Notes: a model not told the origin generated them from the letters alone. A stretch of DNA of 64,000 nt from an uncultured Gammaproteobacteria bacterium (GCA_964360965.1 CAYHYM010000004.1:660-64659), one strand, 5' to 3'. Shown: positions 10,233-63,700, counted from the first letter of the stretch. A program made the numbers and translations.

Positions 10233-11096
10233 TTATGGCTTCCAACCGCATTGGGGACAATTGGTTAACTGCCCTGCCTGAATTTTTTTCACTTCTTCAT
10301 CATTGGCCACCCAAGAACATATGTTACAACAAATCTCAGGACAGTTCTCTGAGGAGTTGGAGTGGGCCAAAAAGGCCTTAAAAGCAGTTAATCCATCCAT
10401 TCTAATGGGACAGCTGATAACCACACCCTGTCCAAACATATCTCTTACTTGTTCTGCATTAAAAAAGCTATCATAGATCCTCTCAGCTTGTTCCAAAGCT
10501 TTTTCTTGATCTTTTAAATCCTGACCTGTTTTTATCTTTTCCCAAATCTCCGGAGCTACAATTAACTCTTTGAGGGTGTCTATCCAATCCCCGGCGCTGA
10601 AAATTAAAGGAGTAGATCTGACTGAATTTAAGCTCAACAAAAGAGGCCTATTTTGACTTCGCTCAGCCAAAGCTTGAGCCCGCTCCAAACAATCCTCATA
10701 TCTTAAGTTTAATATGATGGCTCTGTTAAGCAACCTTTTTTGACTGTTTGGGTGTAAAATTTCACTAATAATTAGTTTAGATGTGGGATAATATACTGAG
10801 TCCTGAGGACTGATCCAAACCGCTGCACCTGCCTCACTATCCCTAAACCATCTATTAATAAAATCAAAAGCCTGACCTTCTAATTGACCCACCAAATTAT
10901 CTCTTTTAATAATACTGGCAACTTTACATTCCGCGGTTGGGGAATATAAATCACCATCTTTATCTTGCACAAAACAGTAAGCATCGGGAGATCTTCTTGA
11001 TTCCTGGAGGCAGGAGGTTATCTCCGGGATCGCTTGTGTTCTATTATCTTTCCAGGAAGGAGCGAAATCTTTAATTAATGTATCAGCTTCAAGCAT
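10233..11096 (-). CDS. hypothetical protein with C-terminal Cys-rich zinc-ribbon-like motif
   Basis: C-terminal CPEICCNICSW...CPQCGW; otherwise no recognisable domain. Confidence 0.4.
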   Translation of the reverse strand: MLEADTLIKDFAPSWKDNRTQAIPEITSCLQESRRSPDAYCFVQDKDGDLYSPTAECKVASIIKRDNLVGQLEGQAFDFINRWFRDSEAGAAVWISPQDSVYYPTSKLIISEILHPNSQKRLLNRAIILNLRYEDCLERAQALAERSQNRPLLLSLNSVRSTPLIFSAGDWIDTLKELIVAPEIWEKIKTGQDLKDQEKALEQAERIYDSFFNAEQVRDMFGQGVVISCPIRMDGLTAFKAFLAHSNSSENCPEICCNICSWVANDEEVKKIQAGQLTNCPQCGWKP

Positions 11097-11258: not shown

Positions 11259-12266
11259 TTGTATGATCGTGTGAGTATGGAACCGCATCCCATTCCCCAA
11301 AATGTCACCTCGTTTGAGTTTCATCTGGTGGGTGACATGACCTTAAAACAATTTATGTTTTTATCATCAGGTTTGGGGGTATCTTATCTGTTATTTGTTT
11401 TTCTCTCTCCCCAAAACCCGTTTCTGGCCTATCCTTTAATTCTGCTGTTTTCCTTTTTAGGAGTGGCTTTTGCTTTTATGGGCATTGCTGACCGGTCTTT
11501 AGATCATTGGCTTTGGGTTTTCATCAAAGCAGTTTTCTCCCCCACCAAAAGAGTCTGGGGAAAGGCAGGTAAATCGTATGCTCAAAATAACCTGTTTTCC
11601 CAAAGGAGCGCTTTTTTTAACCAGGTAGTCCAAACATCATCCTCCCCTTTTGAGCCAATAACCTCTCCTGTTGCTCAAACAAATGTCCAGCCCCTGCCCA
11701 CAGAAGAGGAGCTGCAAAAAACAGTGACTTTGGCCAGAGAGGCCCAAAGTTTGCAGACTAGAATTATTGAATCAGAAAGACAGCTGGAAAGCATCAAGGT
11801 CACTCCCCAAAATATTTCACCCCAGCAAATTGAGGCAACCTTATCAACCTTACAAAAACTGGTCACTGAAACTTCCGGTATTAAAGAACAACTACTCAGA
11901 GCCACTCACCAAAAAGAGCAGCCAAAGCCTTCTGAAGTCAAAATCACTCCCGCCTCTTTTCAAAGACCAATACAGGCGGTGCTAACTTCCCTGCCCAATG
12001 TGATAAATGGTGTTGTCAAAGATGCTTTGGGCAATTTTTTGGAAGGGGTGGTGGTGGTAATTTATAACAAAGAAGGCCTGCCAGTCAGAGCCTTAAAAAC
12101 CAATAAACTGGGTCAGTTCTCAGGCTCCACCCCCTTGCCAAACAACAGTTACAGAATTGAACTGGAAAAGGATGATCTGTTATTTGATATTTTGCAAATA
12201 GATTTAACAGGCCTGGTTTTACCTGCCATGGAAATTTTATCTAAAAAAAGGGTTTTTCAGACATGA
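11259..12266 (+). CDS. PrgI/VirB3-like T4SS membrane protein with long C-terminal extension
   Basis: N-terminal FEFHLVGDMTLKQFMFLSSGLGVSYLLFVFL followed by a second TM helix, resembling the PrgI/VirB3 family; directly upstream of VirB4. Confidence 0.45.
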   Translation: MYDRVSMEPHPIPQNVTSFEFHLVGDMTLKQFMFLSSGLGVSYLLFVFLSPQNPFLAYPLILLFSFLGVAFAFMGIADRSLDHWLWVFIKAVFSPTKRVWGKAGKSYAQNNLFSQRSAFFNQVVQTSSSPFEPITSPVAQTNVQPLPTEEELQKTVTLAREAQSLQTRIIESERQLESIKVTPQNISPQQIEATLSTLQKLVTETSGIKEQLLRATHQKEQPKPSEVKITPASFQRPIQAVLTSLPNVINGVVKDALGNFLEGVVVVIYNKEGLPVRALKTNKLGQFSGSTPLPNNSYRIELEKDDLLFDILQIDLTGLVLPAMEILSKKRVFQT

Positions 12267-12982
12267 ATACCACCCAGCAACATCTTCAGATGGAGGATAT
12301 AAAAGATGATCTGATGATTTTGAAAAATGGCGGAGCGGCTTTGATTTTACAAAGCTCAGCTTTAAATTTCGGGCTGTTATCAGAGGTTGAACAACACTCA
12401 GTGGTGTTGTCTTTTGCCCAGATGCTCAATTCCCTGTCTTTTCCCATCCAGATTATGATTTATTCCCAAAGGCTCAATATTAACTCATATCTTCATTTGT
12501 TGGAGCGAGCCCGAACAATGCAGAGGAATCCCCTTCTTTCTCAAATGATTGACCGTTATAAAAACTTTGTGACTCAGGTTATTAAAGAAAATGATGTTTT
12601 GGATAAAAAATTTTATGTCATAGCCTATACCTCTTCTTTGGAGATGGGATTTGGTTTTAAAAATAAGGAGGCAAGATTAAAAAGAGCTCAAGCCATACTT
12701 TGGCCAAGAAGGGATCAGCTGATAAGGCAACTGGCCCGAGTGGGGCTAAAAGCAAACCAGCTGACCAGCCTGGAAATGCTGCAGCTTTTATATGATATTT
12801 ATAACGGGGCGCAGCAGGATGTTCTACAAATTCCTCCTGTCAAACTTTCTCCCCCTCCACCTCCCCCAAACCCACCCCGGCCAAATCCAGTTCAAACAGC
12901 AGCTGCGCCACCTTCGCAAACTATTATAAATCAACCTAAAAATCACCCTTTTGTGGTGGAGGAACTGGAGGATAATGTTTAA
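12263..12982 (+). CDS. VirB4-like ATPase, N-terminal domain (separate ORF or frameshifted fragment)
   Basis: Resembles the CagE/TrbE/VirB4 N-terminal domain; Pro-rich C-terminal tail; overlaps the next ORF (ATGTTTAA start/stop overlap). Confidence 0.4.
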   Translation: MNTTQQHLQMEDIKDDLMILKNGGAALILQSSALNFGLLSEVEQHSVVLSFAQMLNSLSFPIQIMIYSQRLNINSYLHLLERARTMQRNPLLSQMIDRYKNFVTQVIKENDVLDKKFYVIAYTSSLEMGFGFKNKEARLKRAQAILWPRRDQLIRQLARVGLKANQLTSLEMLQLLYDIYNGAQQDVLQIPPVKLSPPPPPPNPPRPNPVQTAAAPPSQTIINQPKNHPFVVEELEDNV

Positions 12983-14705
12983 GGGCACACCCCAATTAAC
13001 CCTGGAGGATATCATCGCCCCCCAAGAACTGGAGATTGATTTTAATCATCTTAAAATCAATGACAGATTTTACCGCACCTATTTTATCTCCAGCTACCCG
13101 CGATTTGTGGAGCCTAACTGGCTGGAACCTTTAATTTCTTTTGACCATTCGCTTTTTATCTCCATGTTTGTCTATCCCACCTCATCCAGGGGGGTGCTGG
13201 ATGATCTACGGCGCAAAATTGCCGAGATGGAAGCCACCATAGAAGGTGATGTTGAGCGTGGACGGGAAATTGATCCAACAGTCAGAGTGGCTTTGGAGGA
13301 TGCCCAGTCTTTACAGGAAGAACTGGTTAGGGGGGTGGAGAGATTTTTCCAGTTTGCCCTCTATATCAGCGTGCCTGCCCAAGATAAGGAGGATTTGCAA
13401 AATACCTGCCAGCTTTTTGAATCCACTGCCTCCTCTTTGTCTTTGAGCGCCCAGCCAGCCAGCCTGCAAATGGAAGATGGCTTTAAATCCAGTCTGCCTT
13501 TGGGATCTGACCTGTTGTATCTGACCCATAATATGGACACCCCAGCTCTCTCCACCACTTTTCCTTTTGCTTCGTCGGAGCTGACAGCCAATGAGGGAGT
13601 GATGTATGGCATCAATGCGCATAATGACTCCCTGATTCTTTTTGACAGGTTTTCTTTAGAGAATGCGAATTCAGTGGTGTTTGCCAAATCCGGCGCGGGA
13701 AAATCATATTTTGTTAAACTGGAAATTTTAAGGTCTTTAATGTTTGGCACGGAAATTTTGGTGATTGATCCTGAGAATGAATATTTAAACCTGTGCCAGG
13801 CAGTGGGAGGCGAATATATTAACTTTTCCGCCACCTCTGCTGTTAAGATCAATCCTTTTGATCTGTCTTTAAGCTTATCTCCTGAGGAAAATGAGCTGGG
13901 CAGAAAGATATTATCTTTGACCGCCTTTTTAAAACTGGTGTTGGGCCAGCTAAACCCCCAGGAGGCGGCCATTTTGGATCGGGCTTTAAAACAAACCTAC
14001 AGGTTAAAAGGCATCACTGATGACCCTAAAACCCAAATTCAGCCCCAGATAAGCACCCCTTTAATGGAGGACCTTTATAAAATACTCATCGGTATTGAAG
14101 AAAAACCGGCTCTGGATCTGGCAGCACGCTTAGAAAGATTTATCAAAGGCTCGCTGACCGGTATTTTCTCCTCTCACTCAAACATCAATCTGTCCTCCTC
14201 TTTCACTGTTTTTTCCATCCGGAATCTGGCAGACCAGCTGCGGCCTTTGGCCATATTTATGATCCTGGAATATATCTGGACTAAAATACGCTCACAGCTT
14301 AAAAAAAGAATCCTGGTGGTTGATGAAGCCTGGTATTTGATGAGAAATGAGGATTCGGCCAATTTTCTGGTGGATATTGCCAAAAGAGCCCGTAAGTATT
14401 TTTTGGGACTGACCACCATCACCCAGGATGTGGAGGATTTTTTAGGTACTGACCGGGGCAAAGAAATCATTGCCAATTCCTCCATTCAGGTACTTCTTAA
14501 ACAAGCCCCATCATCCATTGAAAAAGTGGGGGGGACATTTAATCTGTCAGAGGGAGAAAAAAGGCTGCTTTTATCAGAAGGGGTGGGAGAGGGACTCTTT
14601 TTTGCCGGCAATACTCATGTGGCCATGAGAGTGGTGGCCTCACCAGAAGAACACAAATTAATTACCACCAGTCCGCAGGAAATATTGGCAAGACAAAACA
14701 TTTAG
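12951..14705 (+). CDS. VirB4/TrbE/PrgJ-like T4SS ATPase (C-terminal two-thirds)
   Basis: Walker A AKSGAGKSYF, Walker B LVVDEAWYLM, and the surrounding VirB4-type conserved blocks. Confidence 0.75.
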   Translation: MWWRNWRIMFKGTPQLTLEDIIAPQELEIDFNHLKINDRFYRTYFISSYPRFVEPNWLEPLISFDHSLFISMFVYPTSSRGVLDDLRRKIAEMEATIEGDVERGREIDPTVRVALEDAQSLQEELVRGVERFFQFALYISVPAQDKEDLQNTCQLFESTASSLSLSAQPASLQMEDGFKSSLPLGSDLLYLTHNMDTPALSTTFPFASSELTANEGVMYGINAHNDSLILFDRFSLENANSVVFAKSGAGKSYFVKLEILRSLMFGTEILVIDPENEYLNLCQAVGGEYINFSATSAVKINPFDLSLSLSPEENELGRKILSLTAFLKLVLGQLNPQEAAILDRALKQTYRLKGITDDPKTQIQPQISTPLMEDLYKILIGIEEKPALDLAARLERFIKGSLTGIFSSHSNINLSSSFTVFSIRNLADQLRPLAIFMILEYIWTKIRSQLKKRILVVDEAWYLMRNEDSANFLVDIAKRARKYFLGLTTITQDVEDFLGTDRGKEIIANSSIQVLLKQAPSSIEKVGGTFNLSEGEKRLLLSEGVGEGLFFAGNTHVAMRVVASPEEHKLITTSPQEILARQNI

Positions 14706-16716: not shown

Positions 16717-17163
16717 ATGAAAAAAGTAGTTATAGTTTTTATAATCATCTTTGCTATTATATCCATAACCAGAATTATATCCATAAACAGATCTGTTTTT
16801 CTAAAACCAGAACAGCTACCCACTGTTGCACCAGAACAATTAAAAATTATCTCCACCAACCCCCACCCCCTGGATGAGGCAACCATTCTACCCACCCAAA
16901 ATATTGAATTTACTTTTAATAAACCCCTGTTTAGAAGCCAGTTTAAACACAAGTTTGATCCGGACATTGAACATGAGGTAGAAGTTATTGACGGCCGGGA
17001 TAAAGAGTTTGGACAAACCTTCAAAATAGTTTTTAAAAAACCACTGGAACTGGGCCTGGGATATGCTTTATTTGTATTTACCAACACTAAAACAGAGGGG
17101 GGTCTATTTTTAGATAAAGAGTATGTTTTCCATTTTCAAACTATTAAATACAAAGGCTTTTAA
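16717..17163 (+). CDS. small membrane-anchored hypothetical protein
   Basis: N-terminal TM helix, no recognisable motifs. Confidence 0.3.
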   Translation: MKKVVIVFIIIFAIISITRIISINRSVFLKPEQLPTVAPEQLKIISTNPHPLDEATILPTQNIEFTFNKPLFRSQFKHKFDPDIEHEVEVIDGRDKEFGQTFKIVFKKPLELGLGYALFVFTNTKTEGGLFLDKEYVFHFQTIKYKGF

Positions 17164-18335
17164 GAAAGCTTTACCGGCATCAGGATATATTCCAAACCCT
17201 CAACTCCCACCGGCCGGATCAGGCAGGCTGACAAGGATCCGGAAAAATTAAGGGTTATTTTTGAAGAAGGCGCGTTTGATATAGCATCAATTAAAAATCT
17301 GGCATTAAAGGCAATGGTTAACCCGTCACCTGAAACATCAGCTTCAATTTCATTTTGCTGGCTGCCCAACTCTTTAGCAGAGGAGCTCAATACCATTTTA
17401 TCTTTTTCCAGTTTAAGCACAATAATATTGGCTTCGTTTTTGGCAAATACCGCCGCCAGTTTGACAGCCACCAGCATCTGCTCTTTGTTAATGATGGCAG
17501 TTGTTTGAATTTGGGTGGGGATAATCTTCTCCCAGGAGGGGAATTGTCCTTCTATCAACCTTGAGGAAATGATGGTTTCTCCGATATGAAAGATGATCTG
17601 ATTTTGGCTGGAGATGTCTTTAATAACCACCTCATCAACTCCCTCCTCTGAAATGATTTTTAAAACCTCTTCCAAAGTTTTTTTGGGTATCAGGCTTCTA
17701 AACCCTTTGACGGAGTTTATCCCGAGCGGCTTGTCCTGAGATTTGTCGAAGGACTTGTCCTGAGATTTGTCGAAGGAAGTCAAGGGACTCAGGGCAAGCT
17801 GTATTTGCCTGTGGGCCAGCCTAAAACCGTCAGTGGCCACAAAATCAAGCTTACCAGCGCTGCTTTGGGTTAACACTCCTGTTAAGGTAGGCCTTCCTTC
17901 ATCGGTGGCCGCAGCATATAAAATCTGGGCGCAGGAGTTGAGCATATTCTTGGGCAAACTTATGCCTTCACCCCCTCCCACAGGAATTACCGGAAATTCA
18001 GATGAGGATCCTGCTGAAATCGTGGCCTGGAATTTTCCCGCACTAACAATTAAGCTGTTTTGATTTGTGGAAATGTCGATTTTTGGCTCTTTTAAAGAGG
18101 TTACTACCTCGAGGATGGTTTTGGCAGGAACCACAATCTCACCAGGCTCTTGAATTTGCGCCGGGACAAATTTAATCACCCCAATTTCTAAATTGGTGGC
18201 AGATAACCTGACCTTAGACCCCTCTGTGGTAAAAAGGATATTTTCCAGTATAGGGAGTGTTGATCTGATACCTGTTGATCTGACAACTGTTTGTAAGGGT
18301 GGAAGTAAGTCTTGTTGTAATATAGTAAACTTCAT
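17160..18335 (-). CDS. dnaN: DNA polymerase III beta sliding clamp, carrying an in-frame repeat insertion
   Basis: N-terminal MKFTILQQDLL...ATNLE and C-terminal IAFNARFLIDAI motifs; length about 16 aa over typical because of a tandem 24-nt repeat. Confidence 0.85.
   Translation of the reverse strand: MKFTILQQDLLPPLQTVVRSTGIRSTLPILENILFTTEGSKVRLSATNLEIGVIKFVPAQIQEPGEIVVPAKTILEVVTSLKEPKIDISTNQNSLIVSAGKFQATISAGSSSEFPVIPVGGGEGISLPKNMLNSCAQILYAAATDEGRPTLTGVLTQSSAGKLDFVATDGFRLAHRQIQLALSPLTSFDKSQDKSFDKSQDKPLGINSVKGFRSLIPKKTLEEVLKIISEEGVDEVVIKDISSQNQIIFHIGETIISSRLIEGQFPSWEKIIPTQIQTTAIINKEQMLVAVKLAAVFAKNEANIIVLKLEKDKMVLSSSAKELGSQQNEIEADVSGDGLTIAFNARFLIDAISNAPSSKITLNFSGSLSACLIRPVGVEGLEYILMPVKLS
17730..17777. 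repeat. 2 x 24-nt perfect tandem repeat (cttgtcctgagatttgtcgaagga) inside dnaN, within a GC-rich patch about 17715..17800
   Basis: Direct reading; encodes SFDKSQDKSFDKSQDK in frame. Reverse complement carries the CCTTCGAC...CTCAGG core seen in other GC-rich elements. Confidence 0.85.
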
Positions 18336-18935: not shown

Positions 18936-20267
18936 TTATCCGGTGGATAAATTATTTTTGACTTCCCCCAGTATCCGCTGGACATCTTTGTCAGTGTCTG
19001 CCAGTTTTTTTATTTTATCCCTCCCATGCATGACAGTGGTATGGTCCCTGTTGCCTAAAATTTGTCCTATTTTTTCAACTGTTAAATTTAGGTGCTCGCT
19101 TAAGATAAACATAGTTATATGTCTTGGTAGAACCAACTCTTTTTGTCTTCTTGATCCGATCAAATCTTTTTGGCTTAAATTAAAGTAATCGCAAATAGTT
19201 GTTAAAACAAGTTTTGGGTCTACTTTTAGATTATTTTTGGGAGTTGTTTGTAAATGCAGGCTGATATTTTCGGTGGTTGGGGGTAAGTTCTGGGTCTTTA
19301 AAATCTGCAAAATCTGAACAAGCCGCCCCTCCAGCTCTCTGATGTTTGTATTATATGATGAGGCCAAAAGCTGTAGCGCTTCCTCTGATAAAACCGCTCC
19401 CTGCTGCAAACATTTGGCGCGCAGTATGGCAACTCTGGTGTCAAAATCAGGCGGCTGGATATCAATCATCAGCCCTCCTGCAAAGCGTGATTTTAGCCTG
19501 TCCTCAAGTTTTGCTATCTCATTGGGAGAGCGATCTGATGTTAAAATAACCTGGGAATTTTTTGAAATTAGCTCATTAAATGTGTGGAAAAACTCTTCCT
19601 GTGTTCCCTCTCGTCCTGAAAAAAACTGGATATCATCTATCAGTAAAACATCCAGGGAGCGGTATTTGGCACGCAGAGCACCCATCTTGTGTGTTTGTAT
19701 TGCTTCAACATAATCGTTCATAAATTTTTCAGATGGAGAGTAGATAATTTTGATGTGTGGTTTTTTGTCAAGGATGGCGTTGCCAATGGCAAGCATCAGG
19801 TGGGTTTTGCCCACCCCTGTGCCGCCATAAATAAAAAGAGGATTGTAAGATAAGCCTGGATTTTGAGCCACAGCCAAAGCTGCCGCATATGCCACATTAT
19901 TGGATAACCCTACCACAAAATTTTCTAAGGTGTATTTGGGATTAAGCGAGTGGGAGGCAACAGGCTCAATAATCTGGAAAAAATCCTCCTCTTTTTGGTC
20001 AGAAAATTTCTCCAACATCCTCACAGTTAAATCAATCTTAACCTTTTGGCCTAAAAGCTTTTCAAAGGTGCGCTCAATTAACTCCAGGTGCCTTTGGCTT
20101 AAAGTTTCTTTGATAAAGGCGTTATGGGCAGACAGAGTGGCAATTCCGTTGTTAAGTGATTGTAGGGCGGTTTTTTGGAAAAAGGTTTTAAAGTTGGCAG
20201 CAGAGACCTGCGGCTTGATGCCCTCTAAAAATTTATGCCAGAGCTTTAAGTTGTCCATGTTGTCCAT
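18936..20267 (-). CDS. dnaA: chromosomal replication initiator DnaA
   Basis: AAA+ Walker A GGTGVGKTHL, DnaA box-binding C-terminal helix-turn-helix region; canonical context next to dnaN and rpmH. Confidence 0.9.
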   Translation of the reverse strand: MDNMDNLKLWHKFLEGIKPQVSAANFKTFFQKTALQSLNNGIATLSAHNAFIKETLSQRHLELIERTFEKLLGQKVKIDLTVRMLEKFSDQKEEDFFQIIEPVASHSLNPKYTLENFVVGLSNNVAYAAALAVAQNPGLSYNPLFIYGGTGVGKTHLMLAIGNAILDKKPHIKIIYSPSEKFMNDYVEAIQTHKMGALRAKYRSLDVLLIDDIQFFSGREGTQEEFFHTFNELISKNSQVILTSDRSPNEIAKLEDRLKSRFAGGLMIDIQPPDFDTRVAILRAKCLQQGAVLSEEALQLLASSYNTNIRELEGRLVQILQILKTQNLPPTTENISLHLQTTPKNNLKVDPKLVLTTICDYFNLSQKDLIGSRRQKELVLPRHITMFILSEHLNLTVEKIGQILGNRDHTTVMHGRDKIKKLADTDKDVQRILGEVKNNLSTG

Positions 20268-20528: not shown

Positions 20529-20618
20529 GTCATTCCTGCGAATGCAGGAATCCATTTAACAAAAAACGTAAACCCATGCCGCTCAAGTTAATTGGATCCC
20601 GACATTCGTCGGGATGAC
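20529..20618. repeat. GC-rich MITE/RPE-like palindromic element (family 1), 90 nt, termini GTCATTCCTGCG...CGTCGGGATGAC
   Basis: Terminal hairpins attcctgcGAATgcaggaat and atcccgacATTCgtcgggat; reverse complement shares both termini plus the internal aattgga with the 108-nt element inside tsaD. Confidence 0.8.
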
Positions 20619-20624
20619 ACCGCT

Positions 20625-21032
20625 ATGTTACCTAAAACCAAAAGACTAAATCTCAAAACAGATTTTAAATGGGTGGCCTCTGGTAAAAAAATAGACACTA
20701 AGTTTGTCAGGCTTTTTGTTAAAATGGGAGATCCTTCGACCCATTCGATTAACACTCAGGGTCGTACTGAGTGGAATCGAAGTACGACTCGCTCCGCTCG
20801 CTCAGGACCTTTGGTTGGGATTGCTGTTTCAAGTAAGTCTTTTAAAAAAGCAACTCAGCGCAATAGAGCCAAAAGACTTACCTCTGTCGCACTTGAATCA
20901 CTTTATCCTCTTCTCCCTTCCCGCTTAAATATTGTGGCCCTTCCCAAAACTGCCATAATTGGTGTAAAATCACAAGATGTGTTGTTGGACTTGATGAAAT
21001 GTTATGAAAAAAATACTGATTGGTTTAATTAA
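20625..21032 (+). CDS. rnpA: RNase P protein component with an internal repeat-derived insertion
   Basis: LPKTKRL...FVRLFVK...RNRAKRLTS blocks typical of RnpA. The start was trimmed from 20592, since the first 11 codons lie in the family-1 repeat. About 27 aa inserted (GDPSTHSINTQGRTEWNRSTTRSARSGP). Confidence 0.7.
   Translation: MLPKTKRLNLKTDFKWVASGKKIDTKFVRLFVKMGDPSTHSINTQGRTEWNRSTTRSARSGPLVGIAVSSKSFKKATQRNRAKRLTSVALESLYPLLPSRLNIVALPKTAIIGVKSQDVLLDLMKCYEKNTDWFN
20742..20817. repeat. GC-rich element (family 2, TCCTTCGAC...CGCTCGCTCAGGA) inserted in-frame in rnpA
   Basis: Same ends as the 28-nt copy at 34106..34133; locally GC-rich compared with the flanks. Confidence 0.7.
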
Positions 21033-28073: not shown

Positions 28074-30284
28074 TTAGGCACGAGGCCAATCAGAGATCAT
28101 TATGGATTCCCCTTTATGAGGTAGTTTTTGCCATAATTCTTCTGTAATAAAGGGCATGAATGGATGAAGCAGTTCTAGGCTGGTTTTGAAAACATACTCT
28201 AAAACAGGTTGAGCTTCAGCTCTTCTTTCTTTGGTAGATTCAATATATTTATCTGCAAACTCATGCCAGATAAAATCATATAAGATATTGGCAGCATCAT
28301 GGAATCTGAAAGCTTCCAAGGCTTTAGTAACCTTTTCAGTAGTTTCTGCTAATTTTTTAATAATTTCTTTATCATCAGCATTGTCATTGCGAGGAGTCTG
28401 CGACGAAGCAATCTGGATTGGAGATTGCCACGGTCGCCCAGGCGACCTCGCAATGACGTCTTTATTTGGATTAAACTCAATGATGAAGCGGCCAATATTC
28501 CAAAGCTTATTGGTAAAATTTCTCATAGCCTGGAGTTTAGGATGAGACAGGGATTGATCATGGCCCAAAGCTGTGCCGTAAATTAGAGCCATCCTGGCTG
28601 CATCTGCCCCGTATTGATCTGTAACTTCTAAGGGATTGACTACGTTATTTTTAGATTTACTCATTTTTTTGCCTAAAGGATCTAAAACCATGCCATGTAA
28701 AACAATATCTTGAAAAGGGATTTTGTTGGTAGCGTATAAACCCAGCATGATCATTCTGGCCACCCAGAAAAATAAAATTTCTCTACCTGTTTCTATAATT
28801 TGAGTTGGATAGAATTTTTCAAAATCTCCGCCAGCTGGCGGATTGGTGGTCTGCAAAGTAGCGAAGGTCCACTGACCTGAAGAAAACCAGGTATCAAAAG
28901 TGTCTTGATCCTGTTCCAGGGTGGAGTCATTACAAGAGCTGCATGTATCCGGCTTTTCACCTTCAGTAACAGTCCATTTTTTGCAAGAATCACAATACCA
29001 GGCAGGAATCTGTATTCCCCAGATAATTTGCCTGGAGATATTCCAATCCCTGATATTTTTAAGCCAGTTAAAGTAAATTTTGGCAAAATTTTTGGGATAA
29101 ATTTTTATTTTCCCAGATTTTACTGCCTCAATTGCTTTTTTTGCCAAAGGTTCAACTTTTATAAACCACTGCTCCAAAGGCAGGGGTTCAATTACATTTT
29201 TACACTTATAACAAAGGCCAATTCTGTGTTTGTATTCATAATCAACTTTTTCTAAAAGTTCTTTTTGCTCTAATTCTTCTACAACTGCCTGTTTTGCCGC
29301 TTTCACACTCATTCCGGAAAACTTTCCCGCACTAGCATTTAACCTTCCATCAAAGCCAATCACCTGAACAATAGGTAGGTTATGGATTTGAGCTCTTGCA
29401 AAATCATCCATGTCATGGGCTGGGGTAAGTTTGATAATTCCTGTTCCAAAAGTAGGATCAACAGTGTCATCCGCTATAATTTTCATCTCTTTGTCTGTTA
29501 AAGGATTTTTTACTTTTCTACCTGTATACCGGGAATTTTTCTTATCTTTTGGGTTAATAGCCAGATAGTCATCAATCATGATTGGCTCTGGTCTGGTGGT
29601 AGCAATAACTAAATATTCTGGCTCGCCAGCTTTGCTGTTAATTAGTGGGTAGCGGACATAATATAGCGGATCTTTTCTTTCTTCATAAACTACTTCTAAA
29701 TCAGAAAAGGAGGTGCCATTTGTAGTGCAGTAATTAACCAATCTTTGGGTTCTGTAAACCAATCCATCATCAAACAGTTTTTTAAAGGTTTTGTAGACAA
29801 CTTTGACAATATCAGGATCAAGAGTAAATTTTTGTCTGGACCAATCAAGAGAAAACCCCAGTCTTTTGAGTTGCTGTTCCATATTTCCTCTATTCTCTGC
29901 CACAAAATCCCAAATCATCTGATAAAGGGTGGTTCTGTCGTAATCAAATCTGGATTTTCCTTGATTCTCAAGATGTTTTTCAAAAACAAATTGTGTTTCA
30001 AAACCGGCATGGTCTGCTCCGGGCAGCCACAAAGTAGCTTCACCTTTCATCCTATGATATCGGATGAGAATATCTTCAATGGTATACATGGCATGGCCAA
30101 AATGTAGGGGGGCATTGGCATTGGGTGGAGGTAAGATGATGGTAAAAGGTTTGCCATCAGGATTTATTTCAGGCTTAAAATAGCCTGCCTTTTCCCAAAA
30201 TTTGTACCATTTTTGTTCAACCTTAGTTTGATTATAAACTTTGTCCATCAGCATAAGTATAGGGTGCTTGTAGTAGTTGGTCAA
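28074..30284 (-). CDS. valS: valyl-tRNA synthetase (reduced form) with in-frame repeat insertion in the C-terminal domain
   Basis: HIGH region PPPNANAPLHFGHA, KMSKS motif, ValRS-like blocks; the 75-nt GC-rich element is read through in frame. Confidence 0.8.
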   Translation of the reverse strand: MTNYYKHPILMLMDKVYNQTKVEQKWYKFWEKAGYFKPEINPDGKPFTIILPPPNANAPLHFGHAMYTIEDILIRYHRMKGEATLWLPGADHAGFETQFVFEKHLENQGKSRFDYDRTTLYQMIWDFVAENRGNMEQQLKRLGFSLDWSRQKFTLDPDIVKVVYKTFKKLFDDGLVYRTQRLVNYCTTNGTSFSDLEVVYEERKDPLYYVRYPLINSKAGEPEYLVIATTRPEPIMIDDYLAINPKDKKNSRYTGRKVKNPLTDKEMKIIADDTVDPTFGTGIIKLTPAHDMDDFARAQIHNLPIVQVIGFDGRLNASAGKFSGMSVKAAKQAVVEELEQKELLEKVDYEYKHRIGLCYKCKNVIEPLPLEQWFIKVEPLAKKAIEAVKSGKIKIYPKNFAKIYFNWLKNIRDWNISRQIIWGIQIPAWYCDSCKKWTVTEGEKPDTCSSCNDSTLEQDQDTFDTWFSSGQWTFATLQTTNPPAGGDFEKFYPTQIIETGREILFFWVARMIMLGLYATNKIPFQDIVLHGMVLDPLGKKMSKSKNNVVNPLEVTDQYGADAARMALIYGTALGHDQSLSHPKLQAMRNFTNKLWNIGRFIIEFNPNKDVIARSPGRPWQSPIQIASSQTPRNDNADDKEIIKKLAETTEKVTKALEAFRFHDAANILYDFIWHEFADKYIESTKERRAEAQPVLEYVFKTSLELLHPFMPFITEELWQKLPHKGESIMISDWPRA
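28383..28457. repeat. 75-nt GC-rich element with perfect 12-bp terminal inverted repeats GTCATTGCGAGG/CCTCGCAATGAC inside valS
   Basis: Direct reading; internal hairpin gtcgccCAGgcgac; length is a multiple of 3 and it is translated in frame. Confidence 0.8.
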
Positions 30285-30736: not shown

Positions 30737-31879
30737 TCAAGCGAGGGATAAATTGGGATCTGCCTGAAGTTTTAAAGGATTTGGGATGGGTTTTTGGAAA
30801 AATCCAGCTGCTGCAATCATGGCTCCGTTATCTGTACACAAGTCTGGTGGAGGAATATATAATTTAATATTTGAATTCAAACTGTCCACTGTAACCTGTA
30901 ACCTGTCAACTAACTTTTTATTTGCAGCCACACCGCCGGCAATCATGATATTTTTCACAGGATGAACTTTTAATGCCTGGATTACTTTTTCTACTAAAGA
31001 TTCAACTATGGTATTTTCAATAGCAGCAGCCAGATCTTGCTTCACCTCCGAGGAGTCAAAGCCCACCTCGGAGGTGTGTACCAGGTTTGCTACTGCAGTT
31101 TTTAAGCCTGAATAAGAGAAATCAAAATCTTTTGATCCCTTCATAGGAATGGGAAGTTTAAATCTATTTGGATTACCTTTTTGAGCCAGTTTGGAAATTT
31201 CCGGTCCTCCTGGATAGGAAAGTCCTAATAATCTGGCACATTTATCAAAGCACTCACCTGCCGCATCATCCCTGGTGCCACCTAAATAATCATACTTGCC
31301 ATGACTGGTAAAAAGCACTAAATCCGTATGCCCACCTGAAACCAGTAAGCCTAAACAAGGAAATACTGGTACTTCACCTCCGGGATGTTCTGTTTGAATC
31401 CAGTTGGCATAAAAGTGGCCAAGTAAATGGTTAACTGGTATTAATGGTTTATTCCAAACTAAGGCTAGAGTTTTGGCTGTTTCTACTCCCACCAAAAGGG
31501 ATCCAATCAGTCCTGGACCGTATGTGACAGCTATGGCATCAATTTTCTTTATTCTGTCATCCCGACGAATGTCGGGATCCAATTCCGAACGTGACTTTGT
31601 TAATTGGATTCTCCTCGAGTCTGAGCGACCTCGGAGTCGAAGACCTGCATTCGCAGGAATGACATCGGGAAAGATTTGACTTAGTGCTTCCTCAATTACC
31701 GGAATAATGCTTTTGATCTGTTCCCTGGCAGCTTGTTCCGGAATAATTCCTCCATATTTGGCTTGTAAATTAGCTGATGATGCTACGACATTGGATAATA
31801 TTTTTACTCCATCTTTATCCTTTATCAATATAGCAACTGCTGTCTCATCGCAACTAGTTTCAATACCGAGTATTATCAT
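30737..31879 (-). CDS. tsaD: tRNA N6-adenosine threonylcarbamoyltransferase TsaD (Kae1/Gcp) with a 36-aa in-frame repeat insertion
   Basis: MIILGIETSCDET...HLLGH...GGVAANK blocks; length about 380 aa against a typical 340. Confidence 0.85.
   Translation of the reverse strand: MIILGIETSCDETAVAILIKDKDGVKILSNVVASSANLQAKYGGIIPEQAAREQIKSIIPVIEEALSQIFPDVIPANAGLRLRGRSDSRRIQLTKSRSELDPDIRRDDRIKKIDAIAVTYGPGLIGSLLVGVETAKTLALVWNKPLIPVNHLLGHFYANWIQTEHPGGEVPVFPCLGLLVSGGHTDLVLFTSHGKYDYLGGTRDDAAGECFDKCARLLGLSYPGGPEISKLAQKGNPNRFKLPIPMKGSKDFDFSYSGLKTAVANLVHTSEVGFDSSEVKQDLAAAIENTIVESLVEKVIQALKVHPVKNIMIAGGVAANKKLVDRLQVTVDSLNSNIKLYIPPPDLCTDNGAMIAAAGFFQKPIPNPLKLQADPNLSLA
31556..31663. repeat. 108-nt family-1 GC-rich MITE/RPE-like element inside tsaD (termini GTCATCCCGACG...CGCAGGAATGAC)
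   Basis: First 29 nt and last 23 nt are identical to the reverse complement of the rpmH-rnpA copy; multiple of 3; encodes ...LDPDIRRDD... in frame. Confidence 0.85.
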
Positions 31880-33362: not shown

Positions 33363-34238
33363 GTGATTACTAAATCAAAACAGGAATATATTAAAAATGC
33401 TATTTATCTTTCCTATACTTCTTTAAATGATTTTTTGAAGTGTCCCGGGAGCTATTATTTAAAAAACATCTACAGAGATCCCAAAACCGGCTTTAGGATG
33501 CAGATTGCCTCACCTTATCTTTCTTTAGGTTCAACAGTCCATGATGCTATAAAGTGGCATATAGAAATGGCAGGCCCGCTTCGACTCGCGTCGAGCGAGG
33601 CGAGACAGGTAACATATGAACAATTGGAGGGAAAATTTAGAAATCTATGGCTAAAATATACCGGTAAAAGAGGGGGTTTCTCCACCAAAGAAGATGAAGC
33701 AAGTTTTGGTAAGCGCGGCCTGTTAATGTTGGAGAATTTTTTTAGAAATGCCAAAAACTTGGAAGATAAACATCACAGTATAGAATTTCCTAAATACCCA
33801 TTATTGGATAATGTAATTTTAATGGGGAATTTTGACTTTATTGGGGAAAAAGAGGATCAGACCTTACATGTTGTGGATTTTAAAACCGGAGCAAATGATG
33901 AAAAAGATCCAATTCAGCTTTATATTTATGCCATTTTGGCAGAGGCTAATTTGGAAAAATCAGTTTCTTCAGCTTCATTTTGGTATTTGGACAGGGAAGA
34001 TAAACCGCGTGATATAGTTTTAGATCCGCTGGAACCAAAACTGGAATGGTTAAAAGAAAAAGCCACAGAGTTAAAAAAGGCAATTGGGGAGGGAATGTGG
34101 GTTTGTCCTTCGACTCGCTCCGCTCGCTCAGGATTATGTAGAGATTGTAGAGACTATCATGCCATTTTGGATGGAAAAGGTGAATTTCAATTTACTGATT
34201 ATAGATACAAGAAAGATGTTTATTACCTTCCCAAATAG
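33363..34238 (+). CDS. Cas4/RecB-like PD-(D/E)xK nuclease with 4-Cys cluster (orphan, no CRISPR nearby)
   Basis: N-terminal Cys (CPGSYY), DF...VDFKTG...QLYIY nuclease motifs, C-terminal C...C..C; two short GC-rich in-frame insertions. Confidence 0.55.
   Translation: MITKSKQEYIKNAIYLSYTSLNDFLKCPGSYYLKNIYRDPKTGFRMQIASPYLSLGSTVHDAIKWHIEMAGPLRLASSEARQVTYEQLEGKFRNLWLKYTGKRGGFSTKEDEASFGKRGLLMLENFFRNAKNLEDKHHSIEFPKYPLLDNVILMGNFDFIGEKEDQTLHVVDFKTGANDEKDPIQLYIYAILAEANLEKSVSSASFWYLDREDKPRDIVLDPLEPKLEWLKEKATELKKAIGEGMWVCPSTRSARSGLCRDCRDYHAILDGKGEFQFTDYRYKKDVYYLPK
33570..33612. repeat. short GC-rich element inside the Cas4-like gene
   Basis: ggcaggcccgcttcgactcgcgtcgagcgaggcgagacagg, about 70% GC in an AT-rich gene. 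Confidence 0.55.
34106..34133. repeat. 28-nt family-2 GC-rich element (TCCTTCGACTCGCTCCGCTCGCTCAGGA) inside the Cas4-like gene
   Basis: Identical ends to the rnpA insertion. Confidence 0.7.
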
Positions 34239-36344: not shown

Positions 36345-36540
36345 GCCCAACTTAACTTCAGCTAAAGTGTTGTGTTTATGAAATCCATTAGAGGGGATCG
36401 ACTCAAATAGCTTAATCGACGATATCCGTATTGGATTAAAAGGCATGGCCATAAGTTTTTCCATTTCCACTTCTAATTTTTGATCTACTTTTAAATGGTT
36501 GTTGAGCTTGGAAATATTGAAATCTTCACTTTTGATAAAG
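36345..36540. repeat. partial duplicate of the thpR 3' end (about 196 nt, same orientation as thpR)
   Basis: Near-identical to 41945..42125, including a 75-nt perfect stretch aaaaggcatggccataagtttttccatttccacttctaatttttgatctacttttaaatggttgttgagcttgg. Confidence 0.85.
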
Positions 36541-38321: not shown

Positions 38322-40052
38322 ATGGCATTAAAAAGAACTACCCTAAGGATAGATGAAGACTTAAAAAAAGATACTCAACAGCGAGCCTTAGAGGAGAATA
38401 CCACTCAACAAGAAATTCTCAATAGAGCTTTAAAGAAATATTTAAGAACTGAGGTTCAGAAAGAGCTTGCTAGGGAAACAGTGGCCGAGCCACAGGAAGT
38501 AACTACAAAAAAGGCTAGTTCGAGTAAACCAGCAGATGTAATTGATTTGATATTTAGCTCACTGGATATCGAAGCCAGGGGTTTTATTAAAAAGGGAGAT
38601 TTGATAGATGCCCTTAATTTTAGAGGAATTCTAGAGGATGACATTAGGATTAAAAATGTCATGGAGGCTTTGAGTAAAACTAATAAAGACGATGATATCC
38701 CCCCCCAAACCTTCCGCAGGATTGTTGGGCCGTACATTACATTAATTGAAAAAGCCCTGACTGGTAGTCTGGTTATCCCCGATTTTAAGAATTTCTGTAG
38801 TTTTATTACTAATCTTTATAATCGCACAATTCAAAACAAAGATGGCGAGGTTTCAGATTACATACCTGAGCTAAAAGGAGTTGACCCAAATAACTATGCT
38901 ATTTCCATTTGTACTATAGACGGACAGAGATTTAATTTGGGAGATTACAATACTCCCTATCTAGCCCAATCTACTGCCAAACCCATAAATTATTGTCTGG
39001 CCTTAGAAGAGCACGGCGAAGAAGTAGTTCATAAAAAGATTGGCAGAGAACCTTTAGGCAAAGGTTTAAATCAGTTGACTCTAAACAGTCAAGGATTGCC
39101 GCATAATCCTTTAAATGGTACAGGAGCAATTATGTCGGCCTCCTTGATTGGCCAAGAACTTTCCCTGGAAGACCGTTTTGAACAGGCTTTAAAGAAATGG
39201 AAGTCGCTTTCCGGAGGAATTAATCCTGGATTTTCAAAATCAGCTTACGATTCAGCTAAACATGTTGCGGATAAAGATCTGGCGCTAGCTTATTTTATGA
39301 GATTGAATCAGTTGTTTTCCAAAGGATCAAATTTAGAAGAATATTTGGACTTTCTGTTTAAATGCTTATCTATTGAAACTACCACTGAAGCTCAAGCAAT
39401 TATTGCTGCCACTTTGGCAAACGCCGGAGTTTGTCCGACCAATGGGGAAGCCGTGTTAAAAATGGAGACTACAAAGAATTGTTTATCTTTGATGTATTCC
39501 TGCGGTATGGAAGATTACTCGTCTGAGTTTGCTTTTGCAATAGGACTTCCTGCTAAAAGCGGTATTTCAGGATCGATTATGATAGTTGTGCCTAATGTGA
39601 TGGGAATTGCGATTTATTCTCCTAGGGTTGATAGTAATGGCAATAGTGTTAAAGGATTAGATTTATGTAATAAATTAATCCAGAGATTTAATTTTCATAA
39701 TTACGATAGCTTAACTAAAAAACTGGATAAAATTGATCCCAGGCTTTTGAAAAATGAAAATAAAATGAGGGGCGTGATGGCTGTTTGTACTGCTGCTTCT
39801 CAGGGAGATCTATATGAGATCCAAAGGTTAGAGGCCTCGGGGGTTGCTTTGGATGAAGGTGATTATGATGCCAGAACCGGCATACATCTGGCAGCCTCGG
39901 AAGGTCACGAAGAGGTAGTTCGCTATTTTATTGAAAGAAGAGTGGATATTAACCCTAAAGACCGTTGGGGTGGGACACCTTTAGCTGATGCCATGAGAGG
40001 TAACCACACTGCGGTAATTGAACTGTTGGAGAAAAATGGAGCCAGGCTATGA
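38322..40052 (+). CDS. glsA: glutaminase with N-terminal RHH-like segment and C-terminal ankyrin repeats
   Basis: YIPELKGVDP...GDYNTPYLAQSTAKPINYCLALE...GREPLG serine-dependent glutaminase blocks; C-terminal ANK repeats (GIHLAASEGHEEVVRYFI...GGTPLADAMRGNH). Confidence 0.75.
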   Translation: MALKRTTLRIDEDLKKDTQQRALEENTTQQEILNRALKKYLRTEVQKELARETVAEPQEVTTKKASSSKPADVIDLIFSSLDIEARGFIKKGDLIDALNFRGILEDDIRIKNVMEALSKTNKDDDIPPQTFRRIVGPYITLIEKALTGSLVIPDFKNFCSFITNLYNRTIQNKDGEVSDYIPELKGVDPNNYAISICTIDGQRFNLGDYNTPYLAQSTAKPINYCLALEEHGEEVVHKKIGREPLGKGLNQLTLNSQGLPHNPLNGTGAIMSASLIGQELSLEDRFEQALKKWKSLSGGINPGFSKSAYDSAKHVADKDLALAYFMRLNQLFSKGSNLEEYLDFLFKCLSIETTTEAQAIIAATLANAGVCPTNGEAVLKMETTKNCLSLMYSCGMEDYSSEFAFAIGLPAKSGISGSIMIVVPNVMGIAIYSPRVDSNGNSVKGLDLCNKLIQRFNFHNYDSLTKKLDKIDPRLLKNENKMRGVMAVCTAASQGDLYEIQRLEASGVALDEGDYDARTGIHLAASEGHEEVVRYFIERRVDINPKDRWGGTPLADAMRGNHTAVIELLEKNGARL

Positions 40053-40354
40053 AAAGTGATATTAAGACAACCGGAGTAATGGCGCTTGACTGGGCAGCGG
40101 CTCAGGGAGATTTGCACGAGATTCAAAGGTTAGTCGCATCCGGCGCAGATTTGAACGAAGGTGATTATGATGGGAGAACCGCAATACATCTGGCAGCCTC
40201 GGAAGGACAGGAAGAAATTGTCAGGTATTTAATTGCGAAAGGTGTAAATATTAATCCTAGGGATCGTTGGGGTGGGACACCTTTAGCTGATGCCATGAGA
40301 GGTAACCACACCAAAGTTATAGAGCTTTTGAAAAAACATAATGCACAGAAATAA
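40049..40354 (+). CDS. stand-alone ankyrin-repeat protein, tandem duplicate of the glutaminase ANK module
   Basis: About 70% identical to the last 95 aa of the upstream ORF; ATGA start/stop overlap. Confidence 0.65.
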   Translation: MKSDIKTTGVMALDWAAAQGDLHEIQRLVASGADLNEGDYDGRTAIHLAASEGQEEIVRYLIAKGVNINPRDRWGGTPLADAMRGNHTKVIELLKKHNAQK

Positions 40355-41479: not shown

Positions 41480-41530
41480 CCCAAGTTTAACTTCAGCCAG
41501 AATGTTATGTTTATGGAAGCCATTTTTGTA
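41480..41530. repeat. second short copy of the thpR 3'-terminal sequence
   Basis: tttaacttcagccagaatgttatgtttatggaagcc against the thpR end tttacttcagctaaagtattatgtttgtggaaacc. Confidence 0.55.
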
Positions 41531-41534
41531 GAAA

Positions 41535-41654
41535 TCAAAGTAATTCTTTAAGTTCATCTATGGAAATTTCCACTGACTTTAAAATACTCATTAGAGTTTT
41601 TCTTTTGAGAGCTTTAATGACCTCCTTTGGCTTAACAACTGGAATTTTGGGCAT
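41535..41654 (-). pseudogene. hicA: HicA toxin remnant with internal deletion
   Basis: Translates to MPKIPVVKPKEVIKALKRKTLMSILKSVEISIDELKELL: the N- and C-terminal segments of the intact 74-aa HicA at 63179..63403 are fused and the central GSH region is missing. Confidence 0.55.
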
Positions 41655-41918
41655 TTAAGAAAGAGTTTGCTGGATGGGTATATCAATTGTTGTCATAAAG
41701 CTGGGACCTTTTTCTTCAGGAACTATTTCATTATGTTTTTTTAAACTGGCAATATATACGCTGATAGCATCTTTAACCATCTCCACAGCTTCTTCCAAAC
41801 TGTTACCTTCTGTGACACATCCTGGCAGAGCAGGTACAATCACCACATACCCACCTTCTTCAGCTGGTTCAAAAATAGCAGTATATTTTAAGATTTTTTG
41901 AGAGATTTTCTTAGCCAT
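41655..41918 (-). CDS. hicB: HicB-family antitoxin (orphaned)
   Basis: About 85% identical to the HicB at 63404..63664; UPF0150-like YxxxFEP...GGY..VP..PGC motif. Confidence 0.6.
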   Translation of the reverse strand: MAKKISQKILKYTAIFEPAEEGGYVVIVPALPGCVTEGNSLEEAVEMVKDAISVYIASLKKHNEIVPEEKGPSFMTTIDIPIQQTLS

Positions 41919-41936
41919 GGAGTTATTATAGCATTT

Positions 41937-42503
41937 TCAAACTAACTTTACTTCAGCTAAAGTATTATGTTTGTGGAAACCTTCTTGGGGAACTGATTCA
42001 AACAGTTTAATGGAGGAAATTTTAATGGGATTAAAAGGCATGGCCATAAGTTTTTCCATTTCCACTTCTAATTTTTGATCTACTTTTAAATGGTTGTTGA
42101 GCTTGGCAATGGTGATATGAGGAATGAAACGACGTTCATCTGCTGTGAGCCTTAAAGTGGCCAAGCTATCTTTGATGCGCTCACGAATAAGTAAAATTTT
42201 ATCTATATCCCCTTTGACTCCAATCCAAAGAACTTGAGGATGGTGGAGGTTTGGAAATCCATCAATATAGGCAGGGGTAACTTCAAATGCAGGAATATTC
42301 GCTACAGCATTTCTGATAATTTCAACTAATTTATCCTTTAATCCATCCGGTTGTTCTCCTAAAAAAGCTAAAGTCAGGTGAATTTTGTCTAAATCAGTAA
42401 TTCTTACTTGAGTAATTAATGTATGCAATTTAGCTTGTATAGCTTGAAACTGCAATCTATTCTCTTTCGGAATTTCAAGTGCTATGAAAAACCTTATACC
42501 CAT
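41937..42503 (-). CDS. thpR: RNA 2',3'-cyclic phosphodiesterase / 2'-5' RNA ligase family (ThpR/LigT)
   Basis: Two H-x-T/S-x motifs (HLTLAF and HITIAK) at the characteristic spacing of the 2H phosphoesterase fold. Confidence 0.7.
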   Translation of the reverse strand: MGIRFFIALEIPKENRLQFQAIQAKLHTLITQVRITDLDKIHLTLAFLGEQPDGLKDKLVEIIRNAVANIPAFEVTPAYIDGFPNLHHPQVLWIGVKGDIDKILLIRERIKDSLATLRLTADERRFIPHITIAKLNNHLKVDQKLEVEMEKLMAMPFNPIKISSIKLFESVPQEGFHKHNTLAEVKLV

Positions 42504-42870: not shown

Positions 42871-42889
42871 TATTTAATCAAGAGTGATG

Positions 42890-43020
42890 GGGAGGGAATT
42901 GGCCCGTTGATCCATCCAGCAACTGATTCGAGTTTTCGAGAATCCTTAAGCGACTAGCGAAGGACCTCTAGAAACCGACCGCGGTGCTACACCCAAGCCC
43001 GCAAGGGAGGATTAGGTCTT
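42890..43020. repeat. GC-rich structured element (possible ncRNA or leader) upstream of a terminator
   Basis: About 60% GC block in AT-rich DNA; contains a tccttcgctagtcgcttaagga family-2-like palindrome on the reverse strand. Confidence 0.4.
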
Positions 43021-46520: not shown

Positions 46521-46615
46521 GAGCCCTTCGACAAGGCTTCGACGGTGAGTCTTTCGACCCTGAGCTCAAGACCGAAGGGCTCAGCCGAACCGCTCAGGGT
46601 AAACTCTGTCGAACC
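46521..46615. repeat. 95-nt GC-rich palindromic element (family 2 core) immediately upstream of the transporter gene start
   Basis: 10-bp terminal-ish inverted repeat gagcccttcg...cgaagggctc enclosing ccttcgac/ctcagg cores; ends at the ATG of the next gene. Confidence 0.75.
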
Positions 46616-50576: not shown

Positions 50577-50927
50577 TTGCATATGCCAAAAGTAAAAAAA
50601 GCAAAAACTGCAAAATTAAAAATTAACCCTTCGACTTCGCTCAGGGTGAAGCCCTTAATGGGTTATGTGTTAGTGCAACCTGGTGAGGCTGAAACTACTA
50701 CTTCCTCAGGTATTATCCTTCCAGAATCAGCTCAAGAAAAACCGGCTCAAGGAATGGTTGTAGCTTGTGGTGAGGATATGGTTTTGGAGGGTGGCAAAGT
50801 TATAAAGTGTCCGGTAAAAGTAGGAGATAAAGTAGTTTATAAAAAATGGGGCGGGGATGAGATAAAAATAGATGGGGTAGAATATAAATTAGTCAAATTC
50901 GATGATCTAATGGCAATATTGGAGTAA
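50577..50927 (+). CDS. groES: co-chaperonin GroES with N-terminal extension containing a repeat element
   Basis: RVKPLMGYVLVQP...TSSGIILPESAQEKPAQGMVVACGE GroES blocks; the 5' end contains cccttcgacttcgctcagggtgaagccc (50627..50654). Confidence 0.75.
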   Translation: MHMPKVKKAKTAKLKINPSTSLRVKPLMGYVLVQPGEAETTTSSGIILPESAQEKPAQGMVVACGEDMVLEGGKVIKCPVKVGDKVVYKKWGGDEIKIDGVEYKLVKFDDLMAILE

Positions 50928-63115: not shown

Positions 63116-63178
63116 AGTTTAATTGTAGCTTAAACTCCTATTACTTCAAAGGTTGAGCCCACTGAATTTTTAGAAACC

Positions 63179-63664: not shown

Positions 63665-63700
63665 AGTTTAATTTTACTACTTTTTACTTTCAAAAACTAG

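Follow-up and report, generated by a model that had tools for sequence, protein, structure and literature searches.

A perfect tandem 24-nt repeat in a dnaN sliding-clamp gene is probably part of an in-frame repeat-element insertion in a permissive domain II loop

Introduction

Rickettsia palindromic elements (RPEs; Ogata et al. 2000, summarized by PMC10969869) are dispersed repeats that occur both between genes and, in frame, inside unrelated housekeeping genes. Among described systems, they are the closest analogue of the family of DnaN inserts analyzed here. In-frame fusions to ORFs have also been described for MITEs, in the form of intragenic ERIC, BOX and similar elements (PMC10969869), and PARCELs (PMC2996958) are palindromic amphipathic repeat coding elements. 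Our full-text literature search returned no paper on in-frame palindromic elements in Patescibacteria or on the characteristic peptides of these inserts. Two further kinds of repeat serve as points of comparison. REPs are extragenic by definition and species-specific. Contingency loci, such as those of Neisseria and Haemophilus, consist of many units of 1-9 nt, shift the reading frame, reside in surface or restriction genes, and are polymorphic in copy number.

Here, we describe a tandem repeat inside dnaN, the gene for the beta sliding clamp, in a 64,000-nt stretch of DNA that was analyzed as a whole (hereafter, the window). An earlier note on this DNA had offered two readings of the repeat, namely a slipped-strand or contingency-like locus and the footprint of an element insertion. 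Our analysis makes it likely that a selfish or neutral repeat element was inserted and tolerated in a loop of the clamp that is predicted to be disordered, with local duplication of one 24-nt arm of the element.

Results

The repeat lies in frame in an intact dnaN gene

The repeat-bearing gene (17160..18335, minus strand) encodes an intact beta sliding clamp of 391 residues, as indicated by its ORF, Pfam, solved clamps, and AlphaFold2/Foldseek. All three beta-clamp domains (PF00712, PF02767, and PF02768) pass their Pfam thresholds, with E of 1e-25 to 2e-26, solved clamps are matched by sequence with a best E of 7e-45, and the AlphaFold2 model (pTM 0.75) reaches Foldseek TM scores of 0.80-0.83 to solved clamps (E 2e-36). 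The cleft strand TDGFRLA (TDGxRLA) and the C-terminal MPV motif are invariant in the alignment of DnaN homologues. Upstream of dnaN lies dnaA (18936-20267), with only a small Endonuc_Holl gene in between. This Endonuc_Holl gene (PF10107; 18332-18781, minus strand), wedged between dnaA and dnaN, overlaps the start of dnaN by 4 nt, and the same dnaA/Endonuc_Holl/dnaN arrangement is found in a relative (L095).

Tandem Repeats Finder reports positions 17730-17777 as a perfect 2 x 24-nt tandem (period 24, 2.0 copies, 100% matches), with a score of 96 that tops all 42 rows for the window. The earlier note is thereby confirmed on the tandem itself and, by the intact 391-residue ORF, the Pfam and solved-clamp matches and the fold, on its in-frame position inside dnaN. 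The 24-nt unit is CTTGTCCTGAGATTTGTCGAAGGA; with up to 3 mismatches allowed, it has no site in the 64-kb window beyond the two adjacent copies, and 100 shuffles gave 0. A 15-nt exact match at 10329-10343 on the plus strand (19 nt with 2 mismatches), in a Cys-rich stretch, is probably due to chance; it sits inside an ORF (10233-11096, minus strand) with no Pfam match. The gene-strand sequence of the unit, TCC TTC GAC AAA TCT CAG GAC AAG, translates as SFDKSQDK, and the tandem encodes SFDKSQDKSFDKSQDK (residues 187-202). Unit 1 (17754..17777, minus strand; TCCTTCGACAAATCTCAGGACAAG) provides residues 187-194, and the identical unit 2 (17730..17753, minus strand) provides residues 195-202 and, together with the 3' tail that follows it, corresponds to one copy of an element of the type found in another genome (L045, described below).

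The two units are part of a larger loop insertion (17703..17795, minus strand), delimited by the alignment, a census of loop lengths, and pLDDT as A181-G211, ALSPLT-[SFDKSQDK]x2-PLGINSVKG. These residues occupy the place of ~6 residues in most homologues, a net gain of ~25 residues (~75 nt). Read along the gene strand, the insert comprises four parts, CTTGCCCTGAG-TCCCTTGACT, unit 1, unit 2, and CCGCTCGGGATAAACTCCGTCAAAGGG. Its 5' part (17778..17798, minus strand; CTT GCC CTG AGT CCC TTG ACT, L180-T186) holds the CCTGAG arm start that is common to the inserts of relatives, and CTTGCCCTGAG-TCCCTTGACT shares its 5' end with them. The 5' part is also an inverted near-copy of the unit's CTCAGGACAAG, and folding pairs GCTTGCCCTGAG with CTCAGGACAAGC. 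The 3' tail (17703..17729, minus strand; CCG CTC GGG ATA AAC TCC GTC AAA GGG, P203-G211) is, when aligned to the L045 element, the decayed right half of a hairpin element with the consensus ..CTCAGGGTAAACT..GTCGAAGGG; CCGCTCGGGATAAACTCCGTCAAAGGG represents the decayed right arm and has the same ..AAGGG end as in relatives. The surrounding DNA had been described as a GC-rich patch, and it is indeed richer than its surroundings, if only modestly so (50% GC in the loop DNA, compared with 44% gene-wide and 39% across the window).

The units belong to a dispersed repeat family

The pattern CCTTCG-N(3-20)-CTCAGG is present in 6 copies in the window, where 0.03 would be expected, in agreement with the remark of the earlier note that the repeat holds a family core ("family-2 core"). 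Two of these copies are the dnaN units (17735-17752 and 17759-17776, minus strand), and two others lie in frame on the plus strand, one in rnpA (20733..20760) and one in a PD-(D/E)XK nuclease ORF (34107..34132). A fifth copy (46559..46578, minus strand), which no ORF of at least 70 aa spans, is located upstream of a solute-binding-protein gene at 46616, and a module similar to the dnaN 3' tail is found next to it at 46585-46610. The sixth, CCTTCGACTTCGCTCAGG (50628..50645, plus strand), falls in an apparent N-terminal extension of groES, a gene assigned by sequence reading only. The same pattern occurs in 10 of 80 Daviesbacteria-type dnaN loci (~4 kb each), usually in the context GAT-CCTTCG-[variable]-CTCAGG-ATGAC and often just past the dnaN stop codon.

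In one of these other Daviesbacteria genomes (L045), a 46-nt hairpin, GCCCTGAGCCCTTCGATAAACTCAGGGTAAACTGAGTCGAAGGGTT, is located just after the dnaN stop codon. Its local alignment with unit 2 and the 3' tail scores 37, compared with 14.5 +/- 2.8 for shuffles (maximum 26), and the dnaN site is among its three best matches in the window, along with the rnpA and 46.5-kb elements. Hairpin z-scores are -4.9 for this intergenic L045 copy and -3.0 to -6.2 for other window elements, as against +1.45 for a typical 30-nt loop insert of a relative and +0.55 for unit 2 together with the tail. As the dnaN copy does not fold into a hairpin any more, its origin from an element rests on sequence similarity and not on structure. 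A structured RNA or DNA signal at the dnaN insert was rejected upon folding of the whole region (z -1.4, not significantly above shuffles), and Rfam matched no element, neither with E relaxed to 1 nor at gathering thresholds, at which the entire window was free of matches. Among 21 window ORFs scanned with Pfam, we observed no transposase or other mobilizing gene, and no RAYT or Y1 transposase domain. The family core, the alignment to the L045 element, and the related inserts in the same loop of relatives (see below) together support the second reading of the earlier note, the footprint of an element insertion.

Nearly all other GC-rich islands with hairpin potential in the window also lie in frame within long ORFs. 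They include an element in leuS (28380-28462, minus strand; a 78-nt hairpin, z -6.2), three in tsaD (31036-31080, 31555-31584, and 31605-31665, minus strand), two in the PD-(D/E)XK nuclease ORF (33570-33610 and 34105-34134), two in tatD (59997-60084 and 60186-60231, minus strand), each of which falls at a gap in the comparison with PDB entry 1j6o, and elements in rnpA (20733-20825). Compared with solved TsaD, the tsaD product has ~40 extra residues between positions 69 and 111, which coincide with the elements. Three folded intragenic elements have z-scores between -3.0 and -6.2, and in-frame, stop-free elements are found in dnaN, rnpA, leuS, tsaD, tatD, the nuclease ORF, and, by sequence reading, groES, which are unrelated housekeeping genes. 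With RnpA as the phmmer query, the solved structures yielded spurious repeat-protein matches only. Two complementary pairs represent families other than that of the dnaN unit: a 30-nt sequence (100% complementary) at 20590-20619, just upstream of rnpA, and at 31555-31584 in tsaD, and a 45-nt sequence (91% complementary) at 31036-31080 in tsaD and at 60186-60230 in tatD.

The window holds several further features. On the plus strand, 11259-14705 encodes type IV secretion/conjugation-like genes, among them those for a PrgI-family protein and a TraG/VirB4-like P-loop ATPase, and, after these, a 662-aa ORF without a Pfam match. A glutaminase ORF with EF-hand and ankyrin repeats (38322-40354) precedes a tandem copy, at 76% identity, of its 3'-terminal 290 nt, and dispersed segments are duplicated at 83-84% identity (41522-41937 and 63166-63683; 36349-36523 and 41944-42118). 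A full-model match to the SAM riboswitch (RF00162; 40.3 bits vs a gathering threshold of 44.4, E 1e-5) is located at 42872-43017 on the plus strand, upstream of an ORF at 43081-43440.

The exact unit recurs in unrelated contigs

The exact 24-mer is found once in each of two unrelated, GC-rich contigs, one with phage-like genes from Hainich well H43 (L004, 1250-1273) and one from another metagenome (L005, 378-420; Ga0315281). Given that, by our own estimate, a 24-mer is expected well under 0.01 times in such a collection, these matches are not due to chance. The exact 24-mer is absent from GTDB species-representative genomes, and a synthetic (SFDKSQDK)x5 protein query yielded one marginal low-complexity match only (P0121). 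Two viral contigs from an 18-mer scan (L087 and L088), with surroundings that show no similarity, were treated as chance matches.

These contigs bear on whether the tandem pair arrived ready-made, that is, whether the family spreads as arrays of 24-nt period and two units were inserted in one event, the copies being identical because the event was recent or because they were homogenized. L005 has a diverged 24-nt unit directly after the exact one (SFDKSQDK-PFDMAQDR), and a viral contig (L090) carries two related adjacent units with the same 24-nt period (PFVGAQDR-PFDFAQDR); judging from these arrays, tandem repetition may be a trait of a sub-family. Moreover, the dnaN units have remained identical to the 24-mer of L004 and L005 while the flanking tail has decayed. 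However, adjacent units differ from each other in L005 and L090 and are identical in dnaN, few arrays were seen, and the family copies of Daviesbacteria are single arms or hairpins rather than arrays. The joint arrival of both units is, in our view, unlikely compared with the local duplication of one arm.

The insertion occupies a predicted disordered loop of domain II

Solved clamps align to DnaN residues 1-178 and ~208-391, and the intervening stretch has no counterpart in them. In the AlphaFold2 model, pLDDT is below 50 for residues 183-208, which lie between the well-predicted strands 172-179 and 213-217; the former continues the TDGFRLA segment, which aligns to the E. coli cleft strand. 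Placed on this clamp model, the insertion falls in a 40-residue loop between these two domain II strands that is predicted to be disordered. The topology of clamp domains is beta-alpha-beta-beta-beta, repeated twice. By this topology, we take the insert loop to connect one half of domain II with the other, at a large distance from the dimer interface of domains I and III. The back-face loops of PCNA (PMC7225939) suggest, by analogy, that the loop is probably located on the face opposite the partner-binding cleft.

The nearest homologues of this DnaN are Daviesbacteria or Microgenomates clamps with only 55-63% identity, and our searches found no relative closer than ~60% protein identity by which to date or order the insertion and the duplication. 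To compare loops, we used the segment between DGFRLA and LIPKKT in 183 distinct homologues, which is 13-16 residues long in 155 of them, 17 residues in one, 19-27 residues in 26, and 40 residues in the clamp of this window (1/183). The domain II loop is thus the main indel site of DnaN in this clade, and the description of the clamp as usually indel-intolerant, given in the earlier note, fails for a loop that ranges from 13 to 40 residues. Twenty-five extended loops, that of the window included, were counted as repeat-type inserts; L068 and L078, whose loops lack the motif, were excluded. All extended loops that were read as DNA carry the coding-strand GC-rich motif GCC CTG AGC ... G(T/C)C GAA GGG TTT, and inserts of the form GCC CTG AGC ... 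G(T/C)C GAA GGG give peptides such as LALSERERVEGF.

Insert carriers are scattered over a neighbor-joining tree computed with the loop masked, and Fitch parsimony on this tree, which has no support values, requires 22 changes for the 25 carriers. Close pairs of filled and empty loops are independent of the tree. Outside the loop, four carriers are 96% (P0007/P0028), 94% (P0038/L008), 93% (P0019/P0080), and 90% (P0113/L028) identical in protein sequence to their nearest insert-free relatives, and the nearest insert-bearing relatives of the same carriers are only 75-80% identical. Compared with L008 (92.7% nucleotide identity), L091 has a single clean insertion of 36 nt in the dnaN loop, a hairpin that belongs to another GC-rich family, and no target-site duplication flanks the insertion in this one clean pair. 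Other close pairs show a net gain of 12-24 nt, with the loop partly replaced rather than simply inserted into. Empty loop sites (CTGCCCAAAGGG) look like element ends joined together. Insertions also recur, on a smaller scale, at a second hot spot in domain I, the beta-turn that follows residue 38-40, where 8 homologues have 5-7 additional residues; all six that were read as DNA are GC-rich, and several have short internal palindromes. Inserts of 21 nt at this site, likewise GC-rich, were noted in L014, L036, L039, L046, and L056.

The census also bears on whether the extended loop is adaptive, a longer and charged domain II loop being favored, for example, for partner docking or regulation. 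The ~22 gain or loss events needed to explain occupancy of this one loop, and the open reading frame that the inserts keep, are consistent with such selection. However, ~85% of the homologues are insert-free, including sisters of 90-96% identity, and conservation resides at the DNA ends of the units, which are also found in intergenic DNA, and not in the center of the peptide. In addition, the same loop of L091 holds a different repeat family, the loop is predicted by AlphaFold2 to be disordered, and small GC-rich inserts accumulate in the domain I turn as well. Taken together, these observations fit a filter of tolerance, and we consider an adaptive origin of the loop length improbable.

Independent assemblies carry the same two copies

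The exact 391-residue DnaN is encoded on three further contigs, two from ENA assemblies (replicate filters, Hainich groundwater well H51) and one from a Logan assembly (ERR3858113). Leaving scaffold Ns and contig ends aside, 0, 1, and 6 substitutions separate the full-length contigs from the window; in the 301 nt that surround the repeat, the four assemblies agree at every position, and each has two units. The four sequences are independent assemblies, and they represent the consensus of essentially one population, so that they carry little weight on rare alleles.

A contingency-like or slipped-strand locus, as the earlier note had proposed, would vary in copy number within the population and thereby alter the properties of the clamp. 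A perfect tandem can slip in principle, and the length of the loop is highly variable between species. However, the locus has two copies of a long, 24-nt unit, all changes preserve the reading frame and hence provide no on/off switch, and the gene is a housekeeping gene rather than one for a surface protein or antigen. The variation between species consists of different inserted sequences, not of the copy number of one unit, and two copies are present in all four assemblies, read as consensus sequences of one population. The proposal is therefore unsupported, and we regard it as very improbable. That the repeat is an expansion or collapse introduced during assembly is hardly credible: these are metagenome assemblies of low coverage (~3-4x for L001 and L002, from the contig names), but the two ENA assemblies, the single-run Logan assembly, and the window, all from the same aquifer, give identical DNA across the repeat, which excludes an artefact, and a 48-nt repeat should (by our own reasoning rather than by computation) be shorter than a typical Illumina read, so that single reads would span it.

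Discussion

We propose that the 48-nt tandem is part of a net in-frame insertion of ~75 nt of repeat-element DNA into a permissive domain II loop of DnaN. The family to which this DNA belongs consists of short GC-rich units with the arms CCTTCG..CTCAGG and CCTGAG..CGAAGG, which pair into a hairpin in intergenic copies. In dnaN, one element, composed of unit 2 and the tail CCGCTCGGGATAAACTCCGTCAAAGGG, lies between the CCTGAG.. and ..AAGGG ends that are typical of the loop inserts of relatives, and the 24-nt left arm of this element would have been duplicated in tandem within the older insert. Since the two copies match perfectly, the duplication probably occurred recently. In all likelihood, the insert is selfish or neutral DNA. 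Its survival is plausibly explained by its being in frame and stop-free, by the hydrophilic peptide that it encodes, and by its position, which is off the dimer interface and probably on the face of the ring that lies opposite to the partner-binding cleft; selection would eliminate comparable insertions at other places in essential genes. On the other hand, the repeated use of this one loop could be due to site targeting or to a function, and not to selection acting as a passive filter.

More tentatively, these inserts might belong to an undescribed class of very small GC-rich units (15-90 nt) in Daviesbacteria, and perhaps in Patescibacteria, that is written repeatedly in frame into the loops of essential proteins; we consider this possible but doubtful. 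The units of such a class would be found as single arms, hairpins, or 24-nt arrays, some of them identical across unrelated phyla. Its existence would point to a possibly targeted or templated mechanism of insertion that acts on coding DNA, beyond a passive filter on transposition.

If the proposed insertion of selfish or neutral DNA is correct, selfish DNA in essential genes, known from Rickettsia, also occurs in bacteria of the candidate phyla radiation, and with much smaller units. The inserts would provide a natural map of insertion tolerance in an essential replication protein, with the domain II loop and the domain I turn as its permissive sites. In the annotation of metagenome-assembled genomes, such GC-rich patches inflate protein lengths and yield odd low-complexity peptides, and they may be misread as contingency loci or as errors of assembly. 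The recurrence of inserts in the same loop, together with the sharing of exact units among unrelated organisms, raises a testable question about how they spread.

Compared with known systems, the locus resembles contingency loci in being a tandem repeat within coding sequence, but dnaN has two 24-nt copies, always in frame, in a housekeeping gene. It shares with PARCELs a palindromic repeat-coding DNA that is distributed horizontally among unrelated microbes; PARCELs, however, are described as building surface-type repeat proteins and not as loop insertions in essential enzymes. The inserts resemble MITEs as small, non-autonomous repeats that are able to create translational fusions, whereas MITEs are bounded by terminal inverted repeats, show target-site duplications, and usually exceed 100 bp, and no target-site duplication was seen here. 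In their short, GC-rich, imperfect palindromes, arranged singly, inverted, or in tandem, and in the lack of a target-site duplication in the one clean pair (L091 vs L008), they are similar to REP/REPIN elements, which RAYT transposases mobilize, and to hairpin-dependent insertion of the IS200/IS605 type. Unlike REP/REPIN elements, many copies of the dnaN family are intragenic.

The likeness to RPEs goes further. Like RPEs, the dnaN inserts belong to a dispersed multi-copy family, both intergenic and in frame in unrelated housekeeping genes, whose peptides are tolerated by the fold, and the genome is reduced and AT-rich. Intact RPEs are palindromic; here, a hairpin is formed by the intergenic L045 copy and by other window elements, but not by the dnaN copy. 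In contrast to RPEs, which are ~100-150 bp long and form Rickettsia-specific families, the units found here, compared with RPEs by description, measure 15-90 nt and are often a single arm. The dnaN-type units are, moreover, GC-rich in an AT-rich genome, exact units are common to unrelated GC-rich organisms, and one loop of one gene carries inserts in ~25 scattered lineages, features in which they depart from RPEs. The locus thus works like an RPE and is not a member of the RPE, MITE, or REP families as these are defined.
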